DNA of 58,342 nucleotides from a phage. A program made the position numbers and the translations under genes. The notes beneath the pieces were generated by a model. It saw only the letters and a list, made by a program, of their open reading frames with translations, was not told where the DNA came from and ran no database searches. This document shows positions 1,572 to 57,624 of this stretch, piece after piece. The stretch lies in sequence record PZ445426.1, one strand, 5' to 3'. Position 1 is the first letter of the stretch; each line of letters starts with the position of its first letter.

Positions 1572-3068
1572 ATGGGTATTGATGCAACTCACCCGCTATA
1601 TGACAAGTGGAAGGACGCATGGGTTAAGTGCAACGACTGCTATGAGGGTGAAGATAAAATTAAGGAAGAAGGTGTTAAATATCTACCACCTTTAGCTTCC
1701 ATGCTTATTGATGGGATGAATAATCCTAATGATCTGGGCTTTCAACGTTGGCTCGCTTATCGTCTGCGTGCTAACTTCCCTGACGATTATTCAAGTGCTG
1801 TTACAAACAATTTAGGTCTGCTGCACCAGAAGCCGCCTACAATCCAGCTTCCTCCTGAAATGGAGTACATGCGGGAGCTGTGTACTGCGGACGGTGAAGA
1901 CATTATTGCTCTGCTACGTCGCATCAACGAAATGCAGTTAAAAAATGGACGTTTGGGCCTGCTGCTGGACTTGCCAAAAGGTGAGGATGTAAATAACAGA
2001 CCGTATATTAGCGTTTATGATGCTTTATCCATTATCAACTGGGATGATGGTAAAGATGAACTAGGTAATATCAACTTGAACATGGTTGTACTGGATGAAA
2101 GCGGTCCTGTACGTGTTAATCAGTTTGACTGGAAAGAAGAGAAGCGTTATCGGGTTCTGCAATTAGGTCCGATGGACACAGATGAAGTTGCAGGTGGTGC
2201 GGTTTACTCCCAGCATCTATTTATCAACAATACCAATTATGATGAAGGGCAAATGATTGCTCCTTATTATAAAGGTAATACGCTGGACGAAATACCTTTC
2301 CAGTTTGTTAATACAACAGATATTACACCAGCACCGGAAGCGCCTCCATTGTTGGGGCTAGCTAACATCTGCTTAAGCATGTACCGAAGTGACGCTGATT
2401 ACCGTCAAAGTCTGCATATGCAGGGTCAGGACACGTTAGTTGTTGTTGGTGGCTCGGGTGAGAATGGAGATAAAGCCCCTCAGCGCATCGGTCCTGGAGC
2501 GGTCATTAACGTTGCTCTTGGGGGTGACGCTAAATATGTAGGCGTTAGCGGCGATGGTTTGTCCGAGCAACGCCTTGCATTGGCAGCGGATAAGCAGGAA
2601 GCTCAGATTAAAGCTGGGCAGATGGTAAACAACACCAAGAGCACGCAGGAATCAGGCGAAGCTATGAAAACGCGTATTGCTGCGCGTACCGCTAGCCTGA
2701 TTCGAATTGCGTATACTGGTGCGGCAGGTTTGGAAAACTTGCTGAAGGTCTGCGCTAAATGGATGGGTGCTGATCCAGAGAAAGTTGTGGTTAAGCCTAA
2801 TCTTGAATTTACCAAGAGCATGTTTAACGGTCAGGACTTTGTTCAAATTATTACTGCACGCAACCTTAAGGCTCCGATCAGCTTGCAGTCTATTCATGGC
2901 TGGCTTGTTGATCAGGGCTTAACCACACTAAGCTTTGAAGAAGAAATGGCAATTCTTGAAGAGGAGCTTAAGAAGTGGCCTCTGCCTGATGATGCTAAAG
3001 CTGATTTAAACGCAGAGCAGCAAGTAAACAAAGATCCTAAGGAAGACGACGCTTCCGATAAAGAATAG
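1572..3068 (+). CDS. putative portal protein
   Basis: 498-aa ORF directly after terL; GGAGGG RBS; call by size and position. Confidence 0.55.
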   Translation: MGIDATHPLYDKWKDAWVKCNDCYEGEDKIKEEGVKYLPPLASMLIDGMNNPNDLGFQRWLAYRLRANFPDDYSSAVTNNLGLLHQKPPTIQLPPEMEYMRELCTADGEDIIALLRRINEMQLKNGRLGLLLDLPKGEDVNNRPYISVYDALSIINWDDGKDELGNINLNMVVLDESGPVRVNQFDWKEEKRYRVLQLGPMDTDEVAGGAVYSQHLFINNTNYDEGQMIAPYYKGNTLDEIPFQFVNTTDITPAPEAPPLLGLANICLSMYRSDADYRQSLHMQGQDTLVVVGGSGENGDKAPQRIGPGAVINVALGGDAKYVGVSGDGLSEQRLALAADKQEAQIKAGQMVNNTKSTQESGEAMKTRIAARTASLIRIAYTGAAGLENLLKVCAKWMGADPEKVVVKPNLEFTKSMFNGQDFVQIITARNLKAPISLQSIHGWLVDQGLTTLSFEEEMAILEEELKKWPLPDDAKADLNAEQQVNKDPKEDDASDKE

Positions 3069-3098
3069 TTGCAACTTGCAAGTTGATCGGTTTATATT
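3069..3098 (+). promoter_or_regulatory. candidate sigma70-like promoter (TTGCAA-18-TATATT) overlapping a perfect 14-bp palindrome CAACTTGCAAGTTG (3072..3085)
   Basis: hexamers and palindrome read directly; lies between portal stop and next gene. Confidence 0.3.
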
Positions 3099-3163
3099 AA
3101 CGAACACGGGGCTGGGACGGCTCAGCTCCAAAAACGTCACACGGGTGACAACGGAGATAAGAA

Positions 3164-4036
3164 ATGAAAAAGAGTTCTGTAGCTATCAGTATTGGTCTTG
3201 CTCTAATTAATCCACGCGCTCGCGGTGAAGGTGATGTGGAATTGCAATACGAGTATGCATCTGCGGAAGAAATCCCGGCAGAATTTGCAACTCTTTACGC
3301 AGAGCAGGGCGGTAAATACGTTCTTGCAAAAGTCAAAGGTGTAGCACCTGCTGATAGCGTTCGTCGTCTGGAAAGTGCGTTAGCAAAAGAGCGTAACGAT
3401 CATCGTCAGGTGAAACAACAAATTAGCGCACTGGGACGTCCAGTTGAAGAAGTCCTGGCGGATTTGGATCGTATCCCTGAGCTGGAAGCTGCTGCTAACG
3501 GTAAAGGTAATCCGGAAGACATTGAGAAGATGGTCAAAGCCCGTCTTGCTCCGCTTGAGCGCCAATTGCAAACTGTTATCACCGAGCGTGACACGGTTAA
3601 GCAGGAAATTGAAGGCTACCGCACTCGCGAAACTAAAGCGAAGATTAAAGATGCAGTTATTGCCGCTGCATCCGGTGCTAAGCTGCGTCCGTCTGCTATT
3701 GAAGATGCGGTGACTTATGCACAGTTGCAAATGACAGTCGACGAGAACGGCAATGTGGTTACGAAAGATGGGGCTGGTGTAACTCCTTACCTGACTCCGG
3801 CGGATTGGCTGAACGAAATCCTTCCGAAACGTCCGCACTGGGTTGAAGGTTCTGCTGGTGGCGGTGCATCTGGTCCTGGCGCTGGCGGTCATCACGGTGA
3901 AGACCCGTACAGTCACGACGGTTGGAACATCTCTAAGCAGATGAATCTCTGGAAAACTAATCAATCTTTAGCTAAACGCTTAGCTGAAAAGAATGGCGTA
4001 GACCCGCTGAAGCCTGTACGTCCTGCTAAGAAATAA
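3164..4036 (+). CDS. putative scaffolding protein
   Basis: 290 aa; charged, coiled-coil-like middle and Gly-rich C-terminus; between portal and capsid genes; GGAG RBS. Confidence 0.4.
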   Translation: MKKSSVAISIGLALINPRARGEGDVELQYEYASAEEIPAEFATLYAEQGGKYVLAKVKGVAPADSVRRLESALAKERNDHRQVKQQISALGRPVEEVLADLDRIPELEAAANGKGNPEDIEKMVKARLAPLERQLQTVITERDTVKQEIEGYRTRETKAKIKDAVIAAASGAKLRPSAIEDAVTYAQLQMTVDENGNVVTKDGAGVTPYLTPADWLNEILPKRPHWVEGSAGGGASGPGAGGHHGEDPYSHDGWNISKQMNLWKTNQSLAKRLAEKNGVDPLKPVRPAKK

Positions 4037-4037
4037 G

Positions 4038-4083
4038 TTGACATCCCGACGTCCCTGATGTTAAGTTTCAACACATCAGGGAC
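4038..4083 (+). promoter_or_regulatory. TTGACA hexamer (4038..4043) followed by perfect 11-bp inverted repeat GTCCCTGATGT/ACATCAGGGAC (4051..4083) upstream of capsid gene
   Basis: read directly; no U-tract after the stem so not a classic terminator. Confidence 0.3.
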
Positions 4084-4158
4084 ACGGGTTCCTAAACAGC
4101 CTTCCACGGGGAAAGGCTACCAACAGTAAACAAATCAATCCTTTTCCTGGAGACAAGT

Positions 4159-5220
4159 ATGTCTAAATCTAAAATTATTCTACCATTTGGTCGTGGTGAA
4201 ACTGACCTGACTCGTTTGAAGGATGTCATTGTCCCTGAGATCTTCACTGGTTATGTGCAGACGCAGACTGCTGAACTTTCTGCTCTGATTCAATCCGGTG
4301 CGGTTGTAATGGACGAGCGTTTATCTGCTAACCTTGCTGGTGCAGGTCTGACTTTTAACGAGCCGTTCTATAACGACCTGAAAGATGAAGACGAAGATAT
4401 CGCGGTTGATAAAGGCAATCCGTCCAAACCGTCAAACATCACTACCGGATCTGAAGTTCAGGTTCGTATGAGCCGTTCGAAATCCTGGGGTTCTGCGGAT
4501 CTGGTATCAGCTTTGATTGGTAACGACCCAATGACCGCTATCGGTAACCGCGTGTCTGCGTGGTGGGTTCGCCGTCTGCAAGCTGCATACATCGCAACCT
4601 GGAAAGGCGTATTTGCTAATGCGAAGAAATCCCATAAGGATGATCTGACGTTCGATATTTCCGGTTCTTCATTTGTAAACAACCAGACCAACTTTACCGC
4701 GTCTAACTTCATCAACGCAACTGCAACGATGGGTGATGCTGCTCGTGGTCTGACCATGATTATGGTTCACTCTACCGTTCGTAACCGTATGCGTCAGCTA
4801 AACCTGATCGACTTCATTCCGGATGCTCGCGGCGAAACTCAGTTTGAGTATTATCAGGGTCTGCGTATTATTGAAGACGACTCCATGCCGCACGAACCGT
4901 CTACTGGTGTGTTTGAAAGCTGGCTGTTCGGCCCGGGCGCGACTGCAATGGGTGCTGGATCACCGAAAGTTCCGACCGCTGTGGTGCGTGACGAAGCCGC
5001 TAACCAAGGCGCTGGTGAAGAAGTTCTTCACAACCGTGTTGAATGGATTCTGCATCCGGTTGGCCATGCTTGGGCTGCTACTCAAACTGCTAAAGGTGGT
5101 CCGTCTAACGCTGCAACTACTAACAACCTGGCCCATGAAGATTCCTGGCGTCGTGCGTTCCCTGAGCGCAAGCAGCTTAAAGTTGCGCGCCTGATCACTC
5201 GTGAGTATCAGGGTTCCTAA
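4159..5220 (+). CDS. major capsid protein
   Basis: 353-aa ORF with GGAGA RBS after the scaffold-like gene and before an intrinsic terminator; call by position. Confidence 0.55.
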   Translation: MSKSKIILPFGRGETDLTRLKDVIVPEIFTGYVQTQTAELSALIQSGAVVMDERLSANLAGAGLTFNEPFYNDLKDEDEDIAVDKGNPSKPSNITTGSEVQVRMSRSKSWGSADLVSALIGNDPMTAIGNRVSAWWVRRLQAAYIATWKGVFANAKKSHKDDLTFDISGSSFVNNQTNFTASNFINATATMGDAARGLTMIMVHSTVRNRMRQLNLIDFIPDARGETQFEYYQGLRIIEDDSMPHEPSTGVFESWLFGPGATAMGAGSPKVPTAVVRDEAANQGAGEEVLHNRVEWILHPVGHAWAATQTAKGGPSNAATTNNLAHEDSWRRAFPERKQLKVARLITREYQGS

Positions 5221-5251
5221 GGCTTCACTCAACGCCGCGCTGTAGTATTTT

Positions 5252-5277
5252 GGGGACATTTATGTCCCCTCTTTTTT
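5252..5277 (+). terminator. rho-independent terminator (GGGGACA-ttta-TGTCCCC + T-tract)
   Basis: stem-loop and T-run read directly downstream of the capsid gene. Confidence 0.6.
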
Positions 5278-9524: not shown

Positions 9525-9922
9525 AAGCGCGCAGACAGTTAATTGATAAGAAGATTCTCCAATGGGAACTAAATAGTAAAGTCCCCGGCGGGGGATCTTC
9601 TTTATTATCGCAACTGCAAAAGGTTGAGGAACAGTCTGGTAAGACGCCGCCTAAGCTTAAAGAATATCGGGAAAAGGAAATACCAATCTGCTTTGAATAC
9701 TTGTCTACTTTATTTGATGACATTTACACCGGAGGAGATTTTAGTTATACAGAATTGCACAGCTATCAGGTAACGATGGGCCTACATCTTCAACCGTACG
9801 AATGCGAAATACTGCGGCAGCTATGGCTTGAAAAGCGCGTGTCTGAAGCTGAACAAAATGCTAAACTCATGGAAAGTCAAATGCAAAATCAGAATAAAGG
9901 TAGAAGGAAAAGGAGAAGGTAA
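9117..9922 (+). CDS. tail assembly chaperone frameshift product (lambda GT-like), programmed -1 shift at 9515..9521
   Basis: canonical X_XXY_YYZ heptamer TTTTTTC at 9515..9521; the -1 frame is open from 9521 to 9922 and ends where the tape measure gene starts. Confidence 0.5.
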
Positions 9923-12900
9923 TGGCCGAAACTGCTTCGCTAGTAATCAGGGTTGACGCGAAAGGGATTAGCACAGCGGACTCCATGCTGCGTAACCTTG
10001 CGCGTACAGGTGACACAGCGGAGCGTTCCGCTCAACGTGTCACATCCAGCTATAAGACATTGTCTAACACATCTAACGAACTTGCAACTGTCACAAGTCG
10101 TTTAGATGCTGCAATTGTAGGAATGATTAGCGTCGACACCATTAACCGTGTTATTTCTCTATCGGACTCCTGGACTATCCTCACCAACAAGCTTGAACTG
10201 GCTCGTACTGGTAATGAAACCGTTGCGGATGCGCAGCAACGCGTGTTTGATATTGCCCAGCGGTCACGTACAAGCTTGGAAGCAACTGCAACTCTATATT
10301 CCCGTCTCCAGCGTGCAATGAAGAATACTGGTATGACGGGTATGGAGCTTGGACGTATCACTGAAACAATTAACAAAGCGATGATTGTTTCCGGTGCAAC
10401 GTCACATGAAGCAAGTGCCGCCCTTATTCAGTTTTCGCAAGCAATGGCATCCGGTGTTTTGCGCGGGGATGAATTCCGTTCTGTTGCAGAACAAGGCCCG
10501 CGCTTAACTCAAATCATGTCCGATGCGTTAGGTGTTACCATTGGACAATTGCGTGAAATGGCGTACAGCGGCAAGTTAACCGCTGATGTGGTTATCAAAT
10601 CGTTGTCTGGTGCTGCGGATACAATTGATAAAGAATTCAGCCGCACTATGCCAACGTTCAACCAGCAATGGACAATTGCGACAAACAACCTAACTAAGTT
10701 TATGGGCGAATCCCAAAAGACTCAAGGTGCGGTTGCTGCATTGGGACAGACGTTTGTTGCATTATCCAAAAACTTAGGAACGGTTGTAACGGTTGGTTCA
10801 GCTTTAGCCACAGTGATTACTGCCCGTATTATTACGGCAATGCTTGCTAAGACTAAAGCGTCTATAGCTGCTGCAAAAGCATCACAGATGGAAGCTGCAC
10901 AAACAGCGGCAACTACTGCGGTGATGCAAAGCTCTATTGGCGTTACCGTGCAGAAAGCGGCTGCGGATCGTGCTGCTTCTCTTGCAGCGTTACAGGTTGC
11001 TCGCGGGTCATTAGCGGTTGCTAAAGGTACAGCAGCGGAAGCAGGTGCACGTCTTGCGCTTATTAACGCCACCCGTGCGCATTCTGCGGCAATTATGGCG
11101 GACGTACAAGCGCGGCAAGCGCTCAATGCTGCGCTTAATGCAACTGTACCAGCCGCAAGCCGGGCAGCTACAGCAATGAGCGTGCTGCGCGGTGCTATGG
11201 GGTTAATTGGCGGTCCTGTTGGTGTAGCAATGCTGGCAGCGGGTGCAATTTACTCCTATAAAGCATCGCTGGAAGCTGGTCGTGCGGAAAACAATCAGTT
11301 TGCGGATAGTGTTGATTCTGTACGCGAGAAACTGATGCAGATGACAGAAGCTCAGTTGGCAGCTAACGCAGTTAAAGCTCGCGCAATCCTCCCCGAACTT
11401 GAAGAGCAAATGAAGCGGGAGCAAACTGCTCTTAAATCTGCAACGGAAACGCAGAAGTTCTATGAAGCACAATTAAAACGTCGTGCTGCGTCCGGTCGTG
11501 ATACAGCTAGTGCCGAGAAAAATTTACAGATTGCTACGGATAACGTCAAGCTTGCTGCTGAACGTGCTGAAGAAGCTCAACGCCGTTACAACAATGTCTT
11601 AGAAATGACAAGCCCTGCTATCGAGAAGATAATTCCGTTAGCTCGTCAGCTTGCAGCGGATATGAAAGCAGTGCTTAATATCAAATCCGGTCCGCTTATT
11701 GACGAGAAAGTGCTTGATCGTTTTAAAGGTCAGTTAGGTGACGTTAACCGTGAGATTGATGTTAACACGGTTAAGGGTGCTGGCAATGCTCGCCAAGCTG
11801 CAATCCTTAGTGGACTGTATCAGACGCTGGGCAAGGATGCGGATACATACGGAAGTCTTATTCGCAAAGTAGCTATGGGCCAGGATGTTAGCTCTGAAGC
11901 AACAAGCGAGTCCGCAAAAGAACTTGTTAAATATGCTCAAGAGCTAGCGGAAGCTTACGGCAAGAATTATGATCTCGAGGAAGCGGAGAGGAACCGAACT
12001 AAAGCGACAAAAGACGGTATTAAAGCAGAACAACAGAACGCCAAAGTTATTGACGATTTACGCAACAAGCTTAACGAAGTAACTACAGGAGTTAAAGAAA
12101 ACGCTAAAGCTAAAGCGCAAGCTGTGGCACTTAATAAGCTCAATGCGTCTGCAACGGCTGCGGAAAAAGCGGAAGTTGTTAGTCTTGCTGCTGCAATTTA
12201 CGATGCAGAAGAAGCTCAAAAGAAACTGGACGAGCGTAAAAAGAATCGTAAGTTTGCTCAGGGTCTGTTAGATGAAGGTATGACAGACTATGAAAAAATC
12301 GCGTACGAGCAAAATACTAAGATTGCTGAGCTTACTGCTAAACAACGAGCGGATGACCTAGCTTACTATCAACTTTATGAGGATGCTAAAACTCAAGTCC
12401 TGAAGAAAGCAAGCATGGAAAGGGAAAATCTGGATAAAGTTCTTATGAACCGAATGATATCCTTTTCTCAGGAATCGTTGGGTATTATACTGTCAGGGCT
12501 GGAAGAAGGTGTTAGTAAACAGAACTTTATTTATAAGGCAATGTTTGCCGCACAGAAAGCAATGCAAATCCCGTCAATCCTTGCTAACACGGAAACGGCA
12601 GCATCCGCAGCGCTTGCATGGGGTACACAGCAAGGCGGTGCTACAATGGGCGCGGCTATGGCTGGAATTGTTAAAGCTATGGGTTATGCGTCCGCTGCTA
12701 CTGTGGGTGGCTTAGCAATCGCTGGCATGGCACACGATGGTATTGATAATGTTCCACGCGAAGGTACATGGTTATTGGATAAAGGTGAACGCGTACTTAA
12801 TGCTCCGTCTAATGACAAGTTAAACCGCTTCCTGGATAGCCAAGCTTCACAACAAGGTGGCGTGAATATGTCTGGTGGTGTTAGCATTGTCCAGTATATC

Positions 12901-13038
12901 ACGGTGCAAGGGAATGGCGATGCTGCACTCACGCAAGCCATGCAGCAAGCGGCTCGTGATGGTGCGGAGCAGGGATATAATAAAGTTCTTACAGACTTTG
13001 CATCCCGAGGAACAATTCGTAGAACTGCAATGGGGTAA
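9922..13038 (+). CDS. tail tape measure protein
   Basis: 1038-aa Ala/Gln-rich, largely helical protein after the chaperone pair; largest tail gene. Confidence 0.8.
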   Translation: MAETASLVIRVDAKGISTADSMLRNLARTGDTAERSAQRVTSSYKTLSNTSNELATVTSRLDAAIVGMISVDTINRVISLSDSWTILTNKLELARTGNETVADAQQRVFDIAQRSRTSLEATATLYSRLQRAMKNTGMTGMELGRITETINKAMIVSGATSHEASAALIQFSQAMASGVLRGDEFRSVAEQGPRLTQIMSDALGVTIGQLREMAYSGKLTADVVIKSLSGAADTIDKEFSRTMPTFNQQWTIATNNLTKFMGESQKTQGAVAALGQTFVALSKNLGTVVTVGSALATVITARIITAMLAKTKASIAAAKASQMEAAQTAATTAVMQSSIGVTVQKAAADRAASLAALQVARGSLAVAKGTAAEAGARLALINATRAHSAAIMADVQARQALNAALNATVPAASRAATAMSVLRGAMGLIGGPVGVAMLAAGAIYSYKASLEAGRAENNQFADSVDSVREKLMQMTEAQLAANAVKARAILPELEEQMKREQTALKSATETQKFYEAQLKRRAASGRDTASAEKNLQIATDNVKLAAERAEEAQRRYNNVLEMTSPAIEKIIPLARQLAADMKAVLNIKSGPLIDEKVLDRFKGQLGDVNREIDVNTVKGAGNARQAAILSGLYQTLGKDADTYGSLIRKVAMGQDVSSEATSESAKELVKYAQELAEAYGKNYDLEEAERNRTKATKDGIKAEQQNAKVIDDLRNKLNEVTTGVKENAKAKAQAVALNKLNASATAAEKAEVVSLAAAIYDAEEAQKKLDERKKNRKFAQGLLDEGMTDYEKIAYEQNTKIAELTAKQRADDLAYYQLYEDAKTQVLKKASMERENLDKVLMNRMISFSQESLGIILSGLEEGVSKQNFIYKAMFAAQKAMQIPSILANTETAASAALAWGTQQGGATMGAAMAGIVKAMGYASAATVGGLAIAGMAHDGIDNVPREGTWLLDKGERVLNAPSNDKLNRFLDSQASQQGGVNMSGGVSIVQYITVQGNGDAALTQAMQQAARDGAEQGYNKVLTDFASRGTIRRTAMG

Positions 13039-22107: not shown

Positions 22108-22698
22108 ATGTCTGACATGACTCTTTTACCTACTAATCTCGGTGGCGACGGTTTCGGCGGTGAAGCTGGTGCGGCCGGTATTGGTGGCGCGATCGGTGGC
22201 TTAATTGGTTCCTGGATCGGTAATGGTTGGGGTGGCAATGGTGGTTGGGGTGGTCGCGGTAACTTCGCTGGCCCGGTGGAAGTGCAAGCTTCTGTTGACA
22301 CCAACGCAATTCTGCAAGCTATCAACAACGGTACTCTTCAGACCATTCAGGGGCAGAACGGCACTAACCTGACTGTTGAGCGCTCCGCTGCTTCTACCTA
22401 TAACGGCATCACTCAGCAGAACACTCAGAACATGCTGGCTTCCGTTCAGGGCTTTGCTGGTCTGAACACACAGATCCAGGGCGGCACCAGCCAAGTGCTC
22501 GCGGCTCTGTGTAACAACGAAGCAGCTAACATTACCCGTTCCTTCCAGGCGCAGCTAGAAGCTCAGAAGTGTTGCTGCGAAACCAACCTGAACATCGAGC
22601 GTCAAGCAGAAGCTACTCGTGCGCTCCTGCGCGATCAGCACGCACAAGCGCATAATCATAGTTATTCCAACAAAAGAAATAAGTCATTGCTGCAATAA
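22108..22698 (+). CDS. glycine-rich (glycine-zipper) protein with C-terminal Cys cluster
   Basis: 196 aa from ATG 22108 (GGAG RBS); N-terminus MSDMTLLPTNLGG then long GxxxG-rich stretch; KCCCET near C-terminus. Confidence 0.5.
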   Translation: MSDMTLLPTNLGGDGFGGEAGAAGIGGAIGGLIGSWIGNGWGGNGGWGGRGNFAGPVEVQASVDTNAILQAINNGTLQTIQGQNGTNLTVERSAASTYNGITQQNTQNMLASVQGFAGLNTQIQGGTSQVLAALCNNEAANITRSFQAQLEAQKCCCETNLNIERQAEATRALLRDQHAQAHNHSYSNKRNKSLLQ

Positions 22699-53809: not shown

Positions 53810-54202
53810 ATGCTATTAGTCGTCACCGGAGGTCGAGATTTTAAGCATGTGGAGTATATTTACTCTCAATTGGATAAGCTGCATATGCAAAGAAGGATAA
53901 CCACACTTCGCCACGGTGACGCTGACGGTGTTGACCGGATTTGCGCACATTGGGCAGAGCGCAACGGTATTAAGACAGAAGCGTTCCCTGCCCCGTGGGA
54001 CAATCTTTCCTTACCAAATACCAAGATACGGTATAACGCCAAAGGTGCTTATAATGCACAAGCTGGCTCTTACCGCAATCAATTAATGCTGGATACCGAT
54101 CCTAAACCAGATCACGCTATTGTGTTTCCTGGCGGAGCTGGTACTATGGATATGTACAGACGGATTAAAGCATCCGGTATTCCTTACACTTTAGCGGAGT
54201 AA
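53810..54202 (+). CDS. LOG/SLOG-like Rossmann-fold protein
   Basis: 130 aa; VVTGGRDF and FPGGAGT match the GGxG / PGGxGT signatures of LOG/DprA-type nucleotide-binding proteins. Confidence 0.4.
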   Translation: MLLVVTGGRDFKHVEYIYSQLDKLHMQRRITTLRHGDADGVDRICAHWAERNGIKTEAFPAPWDNLSLPNTKIRYNAKGAYNAQAGSYRNQLMLDTDPKPDHAIVFPGGAGTMDMYRRIKASGIPYTLAE

Positions 54203-54677: not shown

Positions 54678-54884
54678 ATGGAAACTCCATTGGCTAAACA
54701 AATGATAGAGCGTGCTGATCGGGACGGTTTGCCTGAAGACCATGCTATGCGTCGAACTGCACAAGCGTTTGACGAAATTAGCGTTAATTACGCTATGGGA
54801 AAGAGCACGCCTAAAGGCTTACTGGGCGCATGGGCTCGCGCTCGTCGCTGCTGGTGCAACTACACCGGAGAACCGCTTGTATGA
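54678..54884 (+). CDS. hypothetical protein
   Basis: 68-aa ORF; stop overlaps next start. Confidence 0.4.
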   Translation: METPLAKQMIERADRDGLPEDHAMRRTAQAFDEISVNYAMGKSTPKGLLGAWARARRCWCNYTGEPLV

Positions 54885-55303
54885 TTAAACATGTCAAGCA
54901 ACCAACGTTGAATACATGCGTTTCTGCGTGTTTGGCAATGATCCTTAATAAACCTGTTGAGAAGGTGATTGAGGAATTTCATAGTCGTTATTATAACAAC
55001 TGGGAAATCACTATCAGCGAATATTTGACTAAAAACGGCGTCCAGCATCATTGTTCAGAAGGTGGTGGGCGCGAAACTTTGCATATGGGAGGTTTGTTCC
55101 TGTGCACGGTGCCAAGTCTTAATATTCCGGGCGCATTGCACCAGATTGTGATTGATATGACAGATCACAAGTTTATTGTGCATGATCCAATTAAAGGATG
55201 GGAAGGTAAAAAGTTCTATGTTGGTCCGGATCAAGATCCTGAAGAGCCTGGAGCTTTCATCATTCATACTTGGGTCAAAGACGTTGAAATCCTGCCTTAT
55301 TAA
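54881..55303 (+). CDS. C39-like papain-fold cysteine peptidase
   Basis: ATG 54881 (ATGA overlap); KQPTLNTCVSACLAMIL matches the C39 Q-x5-C-x2-ACLAMI active-site signature; later IVHDP supplies a candidate His/Asp. Confidence 0.55.
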   Translation: MIKHVKQPTLNTCVSACLAMILNKPVEKVIEEFHSRYYNNWEITISEYLTKNGVQHHCSEGGGRETLHMGGLFLCTVPSLNIPGALHQIVIDMTDHKFIVHDPIKGWEGKKFYVGPDQDPEEPGAFIIHTWVKDVEILPY

Positions 55304-55364: not shown

Positions 55365-55550
55365 ATGACCAAACTATACGCCGGATTGTTTTTATTTGCG
55401 ACGTTAATGTTCGCTGGGCTTTATACCTATACAGTAGTCGAACAACCTTCCACGGTTATCCGAATCTTTGCAAGTACAGGGCTTTGTATCTGTCTTATTC
55501 TATTTGTTTTATGCATTGTTATTATCCAAGACCAAAGGAAAATTAAATGA
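55365..55550 (+). CDS. small two-helix membrane protein
   Basis: ATG 55365 with AGAGGGG RBS; two hydrophobic segments. Confidence 0.4.
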   Translation: MTKLYAGLFLFATLMFAGLYTYTVVEQPSTVIRIFASTGLCICLILFVLCIVIIQDQRKIK

Positions 55551-56008
55551 CCACAATTGCGTTTGATGGGAAAGTATTAGCTGCGGACCGTGGAGTTATG
55601 CGCGGGGAAGTTGTGACTGCTTATAAGAAAGTTCATAGCGTAAATGGACATCGTGGACGGTTTTTACTGGGCTTGTGCGGCCTTACAGCATTTACCGATC
55701 AGGTGTTGCGTTATTTTAATAGCGCGGAACCTGTTAAGTTCCCTGATATTAAGCTTTACAGCAAAGATGATTACGGGCAAACTTGCGGTCTTGCGGTTAC
55801 TCCGGAAGGTACTTGCCATTTTATTTATAATGATGGTACTTTGAGCGAACCCATGCTGGACGGATGGGGATCTGAGGGTAGCGGTTGTGTGTTTGCTGCT
55901 GGCGCGTTAGCTGCTGGTGCAAGTGCGAGCGAAGCTATTGAGTTAGCAATTAAACACACCACATGCGCATTCCTGGGAGTTGATACAATATCATTTGAGG
56001 GTTTTTAA
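55547..56008 (+). CDS. HslV-like / proteasome beta-type Ntn-hydrolase protease
   Basis: N-terminus MTTIAFDGKVLAADRG (Thr directly after Met), KKV, and GSEGSGCVFAAGALAAGASASEAIELAI resembling the HslV GSGG...AL...A.DIAE.A region. Confidence 0.55.
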   Translation: MTTIAFDGKVLAADRGVMRGEVVTAYKKVHSVNGHRGRFLLGLCGLTAFTDQVLRYFNSAEPVKFPDIKLYSKDDYGQTCGLAVTPEGTCHFIYNDGTLSEPMLDGWGSEGSGCVFAAGALAAGASASEAIELAIKHTTCAFLGVDTISFEGF

Positions 56009-56351: not shown

Positions 56352-56789
56352 ATGGCACTTCAACCTCGTGGTATTCGTAATAACAATCCAGGCAATATTC
56401 GCTGGGGTGACAATTGGCAGGGCTTAGTTCCTGCTGATAAGCGGACCGATAAATCTTTTGCTCAATTCACGCAACCGATTTACGGCATTCGTGCACTAGC
56501 GAAAATCCTGACAAACTACACCAAACGTGAAGGCCTGCCAAATGTGGGTAAGAAAAACATCGACACTGTACGTGAAATTATCGCTCGCTGGGCACCGCCT
56601 AACGAAAACGATACGGAAGCGTATATTCGCTCTGTTGCCAAAGCAATTGGTGTTCAACCCAACGATCCAATTAATGTCTTTGACAAGGCAATTATGTCAG
56701 GATTGGTGAAAGCAATCATTCGTCATGAAAATGGCATGATGCCCTATACCGACGACGTAATTAACCGCGCTATTGCAATGGTACTTTAA
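56352..56789 (+). CDS. putative endolysin (by position only)
   Basis: ATG 56352 with GGAGG RBS inside ORF 56082..56789; GIRNNNPGNIRWGD motif; immediately upstream of holin/spanins but separated by a terminator. Confidence 0.35.
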   Translation: MALQPRGIRNNNPGNIRWGDNWQGLVPADKRTDKSFAQFTQPIYGIRALAKILTNYTKREGLPNVGKKNIDTVREIIARWAPPNENDTEAYIRSVAKAIGVQPNDPINVFDKAIMSGLVKAIIRHENGMMPYTDDVINRAIAMVL

Positions 56790-56794
56790 CTGAC

Positions 56795-56816
56795 GGGGCG
56801 TTAGCCCCTTTTATTT
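56795..56816 (+). terminator. intrinsic terminator (GGGGC-gtta-GCCCC + TTTTATTT)
   Basis: read directly between 56789 and the holin start. Confidence 0.5.
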
Positions 56817-56825
56817 GGAGGGAGC

Positions 56826-57170
56826 ATGTTCAATTCACCCAACGAACATTGGGCAGTTCTAGCGGGGTTTGCGTTTATCTCCCTTATTGGGGGAGCTCTC
56901 GGTTATGTCATGCGTACAATAGACGCTGGTAAGAAAGTAAGGGCAAGCATTGCATTTCTTGAAGGCTTATCCGCCGCTTTCTTTGGTGTTATAATGTATG
57001 CGATCTACAGGGAGTTTAACATCAGCCTTTGGTTCGCTTTTGGCCTTGCTGGCCTATTTGCTTGGGCAGGTTCACGTGCTACGCTAAAAGCCCTAACGTC
57101 GCTTATAGCTTCACGGACAGGGATCAAACTCGATTCAGGGGACTGCAAACATGAAAACGATTCTAAATAA
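56826..57170 (+). CDS. holin (three transmembrane helices)
   Basis: 114 aa; three hydrophobic helices and charged C-terminus; GGAGGGAG RBS; followed by spanin pair. Confidence 0.6.
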   Translation: MFNSPNEHWAVLAGFAFISLIGGALGYVMRTIDAGKKVRASIAFLEGLSAAFFGVIMYAIYREFNISLWFAFGLAGLFAWAGSRATLKALTSLIASRTGIKLDSGDCKHENDSK

Positions 57171-57624
57171 CTTCTTCGGTTTTATAAAAACTAAACCGCG
57201 TCTGTTTATCGAGTATTTGATGATTGGCGCGGTTGTGTTTTTATGCGGGGTGGCCGCCTACTTGTGGTCACAGAACGAGCTCAGCAAAACTAATTTAAAT
57301 CATGCTGAGCAAAGACTAACCGTTGTAGAACAGGACAATGCAAAGCTGGGCGAAGCTGTTGTATTTCTTGCTTCCCAACGGGAGAAGGATACTGAATCTT
57401 ATCGAAAATTGGCTTCAGCAATTGAAAGTGAGCAACATAACCACAGGTTGCTTCAGGACAAATTAAAAGCACTGGAGAAAAGCAATGCCGACGTCAAAGC
57501 TTATCTTAATGAGCGTGTTCCTGATGATTTGCGCAGGCTGCTCGACGGAGATACAACCACCACCACCGCAGATAGTGAAGATAAAACTTCCAGCTCATCT
57601 GTTGGTAGAATGTCGGGAAGTTGA
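57151..57624 (+). CDS. i-spanin (Rz-like)
   Basis: N-terminal TM helix then coiled-coil periplasmic region; overlaps holin stop and o-spanin start. Confidence 0.6.
   Translation: MKTILNNFFGFIKTKPRLFIEYLMIGAVVFLCGVAAYLWSQNELSKTNLNHAEQRLTVVEQDNAKLGEAVVFLASQREKDTESYRKLASAIESEQHNHRLLQDKLKALEKSNADVKAYLNERVPDDLRRLLDGDTTTTTADSEDKTSSSSVGRMSGS

Follow-up and report, generated by a model that had tools for sequence, protein, structure and literature searches.

A stand-alone C39-like cysteine peptidase of a phage-borne family and its possible action on a host protein

Introduction

What does a C39-type peptidase do in a phage of Escherichia coli? C39 peptidases are leader-peptide processors attached to exporters, and the coding sequence considered here, at 54881..55303 on the plus strand of sequence record PZ445426.1, specifies a C39-like cysteine peptidase of 140 amino acids (PHROG 4049) that stands alone. 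The window, i.e. the whole stretch of 58,342 nucleotides that was analysed, looks like a near-complete siphophage genome (~58 kb). The initial annotation had recognised a stand-alone C39-type double-glycine leader peptidase domain without ABC-transporter domains, and had proposed that the phage processes a Gly-Gly-leader substrate of its own or interferes with peptide maturation in the host. We report that the first part of this description is borne out: the protein is indeed 140 residues long and free of ABC-transporter domains, and the comparison of its family with known C39 domains by hhalign places it in clan CA. The second part is not supported. The reading that we favour, with a probability of roughly 0.55, is that of a cytoplasmic C39-like protease that cleaves a conserved host protein in trans. 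It was not until 2025–2026 that free C39 domains were found to be toxins that cut host topoisomerases (PMC12136450; bioRxiv 10.64898/2026.05.07.723447).

Results

Active site and fold

The translation of the peptidase gene starts with MIKHVKQPTLNTCVSACLAMILNKP and reads, further on, GALHQIVIDMTDHKFIVHDPIKGW. The signature noted at the outset, Q-x5-C-x2-ACLAMIL with a downstream His-Asp, is present as Q7-x5-C13-VS-A16-C17-LAMIL and H87-x14-D102. Gln7 (codon 54899..54901; this and the following codons are on the plus strand) is the predicted oxyanion-hole residue and lies six residues before Cys13 (54917..54919), the predicted catalytic nucleophile. The two residues align with Gln21 and Cys27 of LahT, and Cys13 is also aligned to the cysteine that was mutated to alanine in the PCAT1 entry 7n87. 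Cys17 (54929..54931) is the second, non-catalytic cysteine of a C-x3-C motif that is found in PCAT1 (DCGAAC) and in the toxin StbD-CT (Cys183, Cys187) as well. His87 (55139..55141), the predicted catalytic histidine, and Asp102 (55184..55186), the predicted third residue of the triad in an invariant D-P motif, align with LahT His101 and Asp117. Gln21, Cys27, His101 and Asp117 of LahT are catalytic residues defined crystallographically (PMC6363468). The distance from Cys to His is 74 residues in both proteins. The phage protein thus has the features of a C39 domain, with a putative nucleophilic cysteine at the start of helix alpha-1, a glutamine six residues upstream, and a histidine and an aspartate at positions that are equivalent, by alignment, to those of solved C39 domains; its Cys and His do occupy the positions of the C39 catalytic residues.

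The peptidase sequence taken by itself gave little. The match to the Pfam C39 model (PF03412) covered residues 3–24 and scored 13.9 bits (E 0.05) against a cutoff of 22, so that the profile check returned the expected family weakly and below threshold, and C39_2 (PF13529) not at all. Models for CHAP and NlpC/P60 were not matched either. Searches of the sequence against NCBIfam and PDB sequences returned noise only, and a 15-sequence family profile searched against the PDB gave noise as well. The C39 case therefore rests on evidence at the level of the family, which goes well beyond chance. Of 146 diverse members that were aligned, 39 matched PF03412 at E ≤ 0.1, the best with an E-value of 2.4e-6, and weak matches to C39_2 (E 0.04) or C58 (PF03543) were seen for 3 of the 146. 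For a profile comparison, LahT150 and PCAT1 domains were rebuilt from PDB alignments and supplemented with PCAT1-like domains; the resulting C39 alignment is shallow, the word-indexed search having given 12 close PCAT1 relatives. Compared with this small alignment by hhalign, the 146-member family gave a probability of 84.6% and an E-value of 6.8e-6 over 102 columns, and Q7/C13/H87/D102 were paired with Q7/C13/H87/D103 of the segment, which correspond to Gln21/Cys27/His101/Asp117 of LahT. Against single C39 sequences the result was weak (probabilities of 2.9% for PCAT1 and 73% for LahT), with the N-terminal motif alone aligned.

The AlphaFold2 model, built on a 15-sequence alignment, had a pLDDT of 93.3 and a pTM of 0.89. 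In the model Cys13 opens a helix (residues 13–22), His87 opens a strand (86–92) and Asp102 follows another (99–101); this predicted order of secondary-structure elements is the papain-fold layout. Foldseek ranked PCAT1 first, and the nearest solved structures are those of C39 domains that process leader peptides. The fold matches in BFVD, with TM-scores of up to 0.90, were to uncharacterised phage proteins only; these and PHROG 4049 are the peptidase's own family, which carries no functional annotation. Overall, the data support a cysteine peptidase of the C39 type (clan CA) that stands alone, an assignment that on sequence grounds is made at the level of the superfamily, the Pfam score being below the threshold.

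The only lower-confidence loop of the model (residues 61–70, mean pLDDT 75) contains a Gly-Gly-Gly stretch at residues 61–63 (55061..55069), which is kept in Seuratvirus-like members but not in distant ones. It may conceivably be an autoprocessing site of the kind that StbD-CT carries (bioRxiv 10.64898/2026.05.07.723447).

In principle, the fold would also suit an enzyme that modifies its target without cutting it, since some Cys-His-Asp enzymes with the papain fold are deamidases, transglutaminases or acyltransferases (PMC3482391; PMC10318531), and one family member does match phytochelatin synthase weakly. We consider such an activity unlikely, because true C39 peptidases provide both the closest structures and the only significant profile matches, and the Gln-x5-Cys arrangement agrees with theirs.

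Size, conservation and distribution of the family

The peptidase belongs to PHROG 4049, a family of unknown function, which it matched over residues 1–139 of its 140 (E 1.2e-58, 198 bits). A word-indexed search found 21 relatives. An exhaustive profile search retrieved 1072 cluster representatives at E ≤ 1e-3, of which 670 had E ≤ 1e-10, the representatives standing for clusters at 50% identity (about 1000). Nearly all of the best 150 representatives are 135–160 amino acids long and stand alone. H87, D102 and P103 are invariant in the alignment of 146 members, and Q7, C13, C17, A19, M20, V77, S79, L80, N81, G106 and Y113 are conserved in at least 90%; the putative catalytic residues are thus among the most conserved positions of the family. 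This bears on the idea of a catalytically dead binding domain, comparable to the C39-like domain of HlyB, which is highly improbable given that Gln, Cys, His and Asp are all kept at the positions where the diverse members vary least. Motifs of the family's own are TVPSLN before the histidine and DP-x-G-x-x-GK-x-YY after the aspartate. The His-Asp half also resembles that of PfhB2, one of the YopT/C58-type clan CA effector proteases (others being AvrPphB and AvrRpt2): PfhB2 has SINLEGGSH...FFDPNFG where the phage family has SLN..G..H...DPnkG.

In tblastn searches 196 phage records contained the family, and phages of Vibrio (53), Escherichia (45), Salmonella (34) and Pseudomonas (18) came up most often; Seuratvirus, Nonagvirus, Ackermannviridae and Vibrio Enhodamvirus are represented. 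Nearly all records label the protein as hypothetical, and our literature search found no paper on the PHROG 4049 phage family. A pattern-limited scan of the genomes of 185,579 species gave only 2 bacterial loci, and only 2 plasmids were found to carry a member. The family is therefore essentially phage-borne.

A few members are fused to other sequences. One (P0046) has a C-terminal Phage_YunG-like domain, another (P0107) a weak, sub-threshold zinc-ribbon match, and two (P0114 and P0169) have unannotated N-terminal extensions of ~115 residues with MazG-like EExxE motifs.

Exporters, leader peptides and partner genes

The closest known relatives of the peptidase in structure are the C39 domains of PCAT/AMS transporters (LahT, PCAT1, ComA and CvaB; PF03412). 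They share with it the layout Gln-x5-Cys(-x3-Cys)...His...Asp and the ACLAM motif after the nucleophile. In contrast to these domains, the phage peptidase is carried by a phage, falls below the Pfam threshold, is neither fused to nor encoded near an ABC transporter, and has no Gly-Gly-leader substrate gene. No ABC-transporter family was matched by any of 6 scanned open reading frames (ORFs) of >600 amino acids in the window, a set that does not include the 1038-residue ORF at 9922..13038, and no transporter was seen in the annotated related loci. A substrate was sought with a position-weighted leader scan for Gly-Gly, Gly-Ala and Gly-Ser, covering all plausible ORFs and their alternative starts. 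The scan gave nothing credible: the top scores were internal starts of large proteins and a transmembrane segment of the holin, and no credible leader was present at a true N-terminus.

The initial annotation had named the Gly-rich product of 22108..22698 (plus strand) as a weak candidate substrate. This gene (phrog_9288) lies directly downstream of a tail-fibre gene, and its product does start with MSDMTLLPTNLGG. However, the sequence has its hydrophobic residue at −3, not at −4, and lacks an acidic residue at −8. The candidate also does not co-occur with the peptidase. Its conserved core (residues ~56–182) is found in T5-like and other phages that are absent among the peptidase matches, its Gly/Trp-rich first 55 residues are confined to close Seuratviruses, and the peptidase family occurs in many phages that do not have the phrog_9288 protein.

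To see which genes accompany the family, the neighbours of 58 loci were surveyed, representing 32 lineages at <60% identity. There was no conserved partner gene, and no neighbour family was common to more than 3 of the 32 lineages. With the scan negative, the one candidate not co-occurring and no neighbour conserved, the idea that the phage encodes its own Gly-Gly-leader substrate in cis is not supported. The wider proposal, removal of a double-glycine leader from some phage product or interference with the maturation of bacteriocins or quorum peptides of the host, would fit the leader-processing function of the nearest solved structures, the minimal domain size that the phage protein has in common with them and the LahT-like Cys-to-His spacing. 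Nonetheless we regard it as improbable, for the reasons given above and because Gly-Gly-leader peptides of hosts are strain-specific accessory traits, a poor fit with a family found in 196 records.

Gene neighbourhoods across lineages

The neighbourhoods of the family are early, DNA-metabolism or anti-restriction regions. Recurrent neighbours are SF2 and SNF2 helicases, a RepB-like primase, N6/N4 and C5 DNA methylases, Lar-like proteins, dUTPase and ligase. These surroundings bear on a counter-defence function, in which the enzyme would act as a protease or deconjugase on an immune protein of the host, or on a C-terminal-Gly conjugate of the ubiquitin-like or cGAS proteins of Bil or type II CBASS systems. 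Such a defence protein of the host is the chief alternative as a target, and one that we put forward tentatively. It would agree with the position of the gene in early accessory regions, where several lineages have it beside orphan DNA methylases and Lar-like genes for restriction alleviation, and with a phage-borne family in a variable context, which is typical of anti-defence genes. On the other hand, deubiquitinases resemble the protein less in structure than C39 domains do, the gene appears conserved and not patchy across the examined Seuratvirus records and the Ackermannviridae, and a PADLOC search gave no matches.

Two contexts could point to type II topoisomerases. In both Ackermannviridae genomes that were examined (2 of 2), the homologue is located between genes for gp39-like (large) and gp52-like topoisomerase II subunits (1574..5268 of locus L002, Shigella phage Ag3; 1565..5251 of locus L005, Salmonella phage Maynard), and the stop and start codons of the three genes abut or overlap. 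The topoisomerase II of Ag3 has LYAGSNF where GyrB has LHAGGKF, the equivalence of the two segments being judged by motif and not by alignment. In an environmental phage (locus L027, 6566..7105), a 179-residue pentapeptide-repeat protein (PF00805; ANLSS/ADLRS repeats) is encoded immediately downstream of the homologue, with genes for N6/N4 and C5 DNA methylases on either side of the two. The pentapeptide-repeat class includes the gyrase-binding proteins Qnr and MfpA.

In a Methylophaga metagenome-assembled genome (locus L008, 4505..7672), the C39-like gene lies between a portal gene and a gene for a 415-residue protein, which we tentatively take to be a MuF/SPP1-gp7-like head-module protein. 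This position hints that some family members could be virion-associated or ejected effectors.

The gene in its phage genome

We take the ATG at 54881, and not that at 54830, as the start codon, because three observations agree. A Shine-Dalgarno-like GGAGAA is found in the sequence at 54867..54872 on the plus strand, 8 nucleotides upstream of this ATG, with its GGAG (54867–54870) 8–11 nucleotides upstream; the start overlaps, as ATGA, the stop of the upstream ORF at 54678..54884; and homologues begin at the same N-terminus. The 2.5 kb around the gene share 96% identity with Escherichia phage Greed and, across ~92% of the stretch, ~96% identity with phages CAjan and Seurat; CAjan is classified in the genus Seuratvirus, subfamily Queuovirinae. 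The plus strand carries terminase and tail genes from 1 to 22.7 kb, and the minus strand encodes helicase, primase, ligase and other replication proteins. From ~51 kb to ~56.8 kb there is a block of small rightward ORFs; the last genes are those for endolysin, holin and spanin, and the peptidase gene is located ~1 kb upstream of them.

The proximity to the lysis cassette could suggest a cell-wall amidase or endopeptidase with a part in lysis. This is very unlikely: the peptidase sequence shows neither a signal peptide nor a transmembrane segment, nor a domain that would bind the cell wall, the models for C39_2, CHAP and NlpC/P60 were not matched, and other phages carry the gene in replication or early modules, not in lysis modules. 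The peptidase differs in the same respects from Peptidase_C39_2 and the cell-wall papain-fold hydrolases, having neither a match to their models nor a secretion signal or wall-binding module.

Several neighbours in the window deserve description. The upstream ORF (54678..54884, plus strand; phrog_27185) encodes 68 residues and is translationally coupled to the peptidase gene through the ATGA. Its stretch is matched in full by Greed-like genomes; CAjan, to judge by the sizes of its genes, lacks a counterpart, and a gene for 156 residues directly precedes the peptidase gene there. The end of the 68-residue product, ...PKGLLGA WARARRCWCNYTGEPLV (PKGLLGA followed by WARARR), has a weak resemblance to a Gly-Ala leader, below the cutoff of the leader scan. 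Further upstream, 53810..54202 (plus strand) encodes a SLOG-domain protein related to YspA/cpYpsA (PF10686, E 1e-17), whose GenBank relatives are labelled 'GTP-binding domain'.

On the other side, 55547..56008 (plus strand) encodes a stand-alone HslV-family (Ntn-hydrolase) peptidase (PHROG 1040, E 3e-32; no Pfam match). The protein starts MTTIAFDG, with Thr2 available as nucleophile, and no HslU-like ATPase was seen to go with it. The gene is syntenic with the C39-like gene across Seuratvirus and in Pantoea phage Vid5, so that two orphan proteases are encoded less than 700 bp apart. The lysis genes (56352..57624, plus strand) follow in the order endolysin, terminator-like hairpin, LydA-type holin and Rz-like spanin. 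The hairpin, GGGGCGTTAGCCCC, is strong and followed by a T run at 56795..56808; given its position between endolysin and holin, the endolysin may be transcribed with the upstream block of small genes instead of with the holin.

Discussion

Our reading of the locus is that it encodes a minimal cysteine endopeptidase that stands alone, is catalytically competent and belongs to the C39-like branch of the papain superfamily. The enzyme would be made in the cytoplasm of the infected cell from the rightward block of small genes (~51–56.8 kb). There, by analogy with its solved relatives, it would act in trans on a protein, which it would probably cut after a motif of the Gly-Gly type. No substrate gene travels with the peptidase in any lineage, and the target should therefore be something that every host or every phage has; a conserved host protein is the most likely choice and a universal phage protein a less likely one, whereas a bacteriocin-like precursor of the phage is not what we expect.

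The precedent for such a mode of action comes from toxins. Cpe1, delivered by the type VI secretion system of Escherichia coli, cleaves GyrB and ParE after the Gly-Gly of LHAGGKF (PMC12136450), and StbD-CT, from a CdiA-like protein of Citrobacter rodentium, cleaves them at the same place (bioRxiv 10.64898/2026.05.07.723447). In both, the C39 domain is free in the cytoplasm of the target cell and acts on folded proteins, not on leader peptides. The core layout is the same: Gln177, Cys183, Cys187, His258 and Asp275 of StbD-CT mirror Q7, C13, C17, H87 and D102 of the phage protein. Unlike the toxins, the phage peptidase comes without a PAAR, VgrG, Rhs or CdiA carrier, and it has neither an entry domain nor an immunity gene. 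The similarity in layout was not accompanied by a closer affinity, as the family profile searched against PDB sequences at E ≤ 10 did not match the StbD-CT entry 8ssm, and PCAT domains are structurally slightly closer to the phage peptidase than the toxins are.

The leading specific target, which we put forward as a doubtful one and by analogy, is GyrB/ParE, the ATPase subunits of the type II topoisomerases of the host. The protease would then serve host takeover by cutting these subunits of gyrase and topoisomerase IV at their conserved Gly-Gly, in the manner of Cpe1 and StbD-CT. The Ackermannviridae may express it together with a topoisomerase II of their own that resists cleavage (with LYAGSNF, not LHAGGKF) and replaces the host enzymes. 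The topoisomerase lead is only a hint, because each of the two contexts was seen in one lineage of the 32, an affinity to the toxins was not found and PCAT domains are closer in structure.

Several points weigh against the preferred reading, a cytoplasmic protease with a conserved host target, or against its topoisomerase version. The peptidase itself misses the gathering threshold of the Pfam C39 model, its active-site geometry is read from alignment and secondary structure only, and catalytic activity across the family is a prediction. A topoisomerase II or a pentapeptide-repeat neighbour was detected by phmmer in a single lineage each. No topoisomerase was seen among the scanned proteins of the window, which are a part of the proteome, and a phage that does not have its own topoisomerase may need the host gyrase, the destruction of which could be costly. 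Finally, the neighbourhoods with methylase and Lar-like genes fit counter-defence equally well.

For the biology of these phages, the finding describes a large family of minimal C39-like proteases that stand alone, keep their catalytic residues intact and are carried almost exclusively by phages. Should the members prove to be accessory enzymes merely, PHROG 4049 would still gain a defensible annotation. If a host protein is cleaved, be it a topoisomerase or an immune component, the family would be a new class of phage effector for host takeover or counter-defence, and could provide a compact sequence-specific protease tool. If the target is GyrB/ParE, a phage protease that destroys host topoisomerases would be known for the first time, and an evolutionary link would be drawn from interbacterial toxins to phage early genes.

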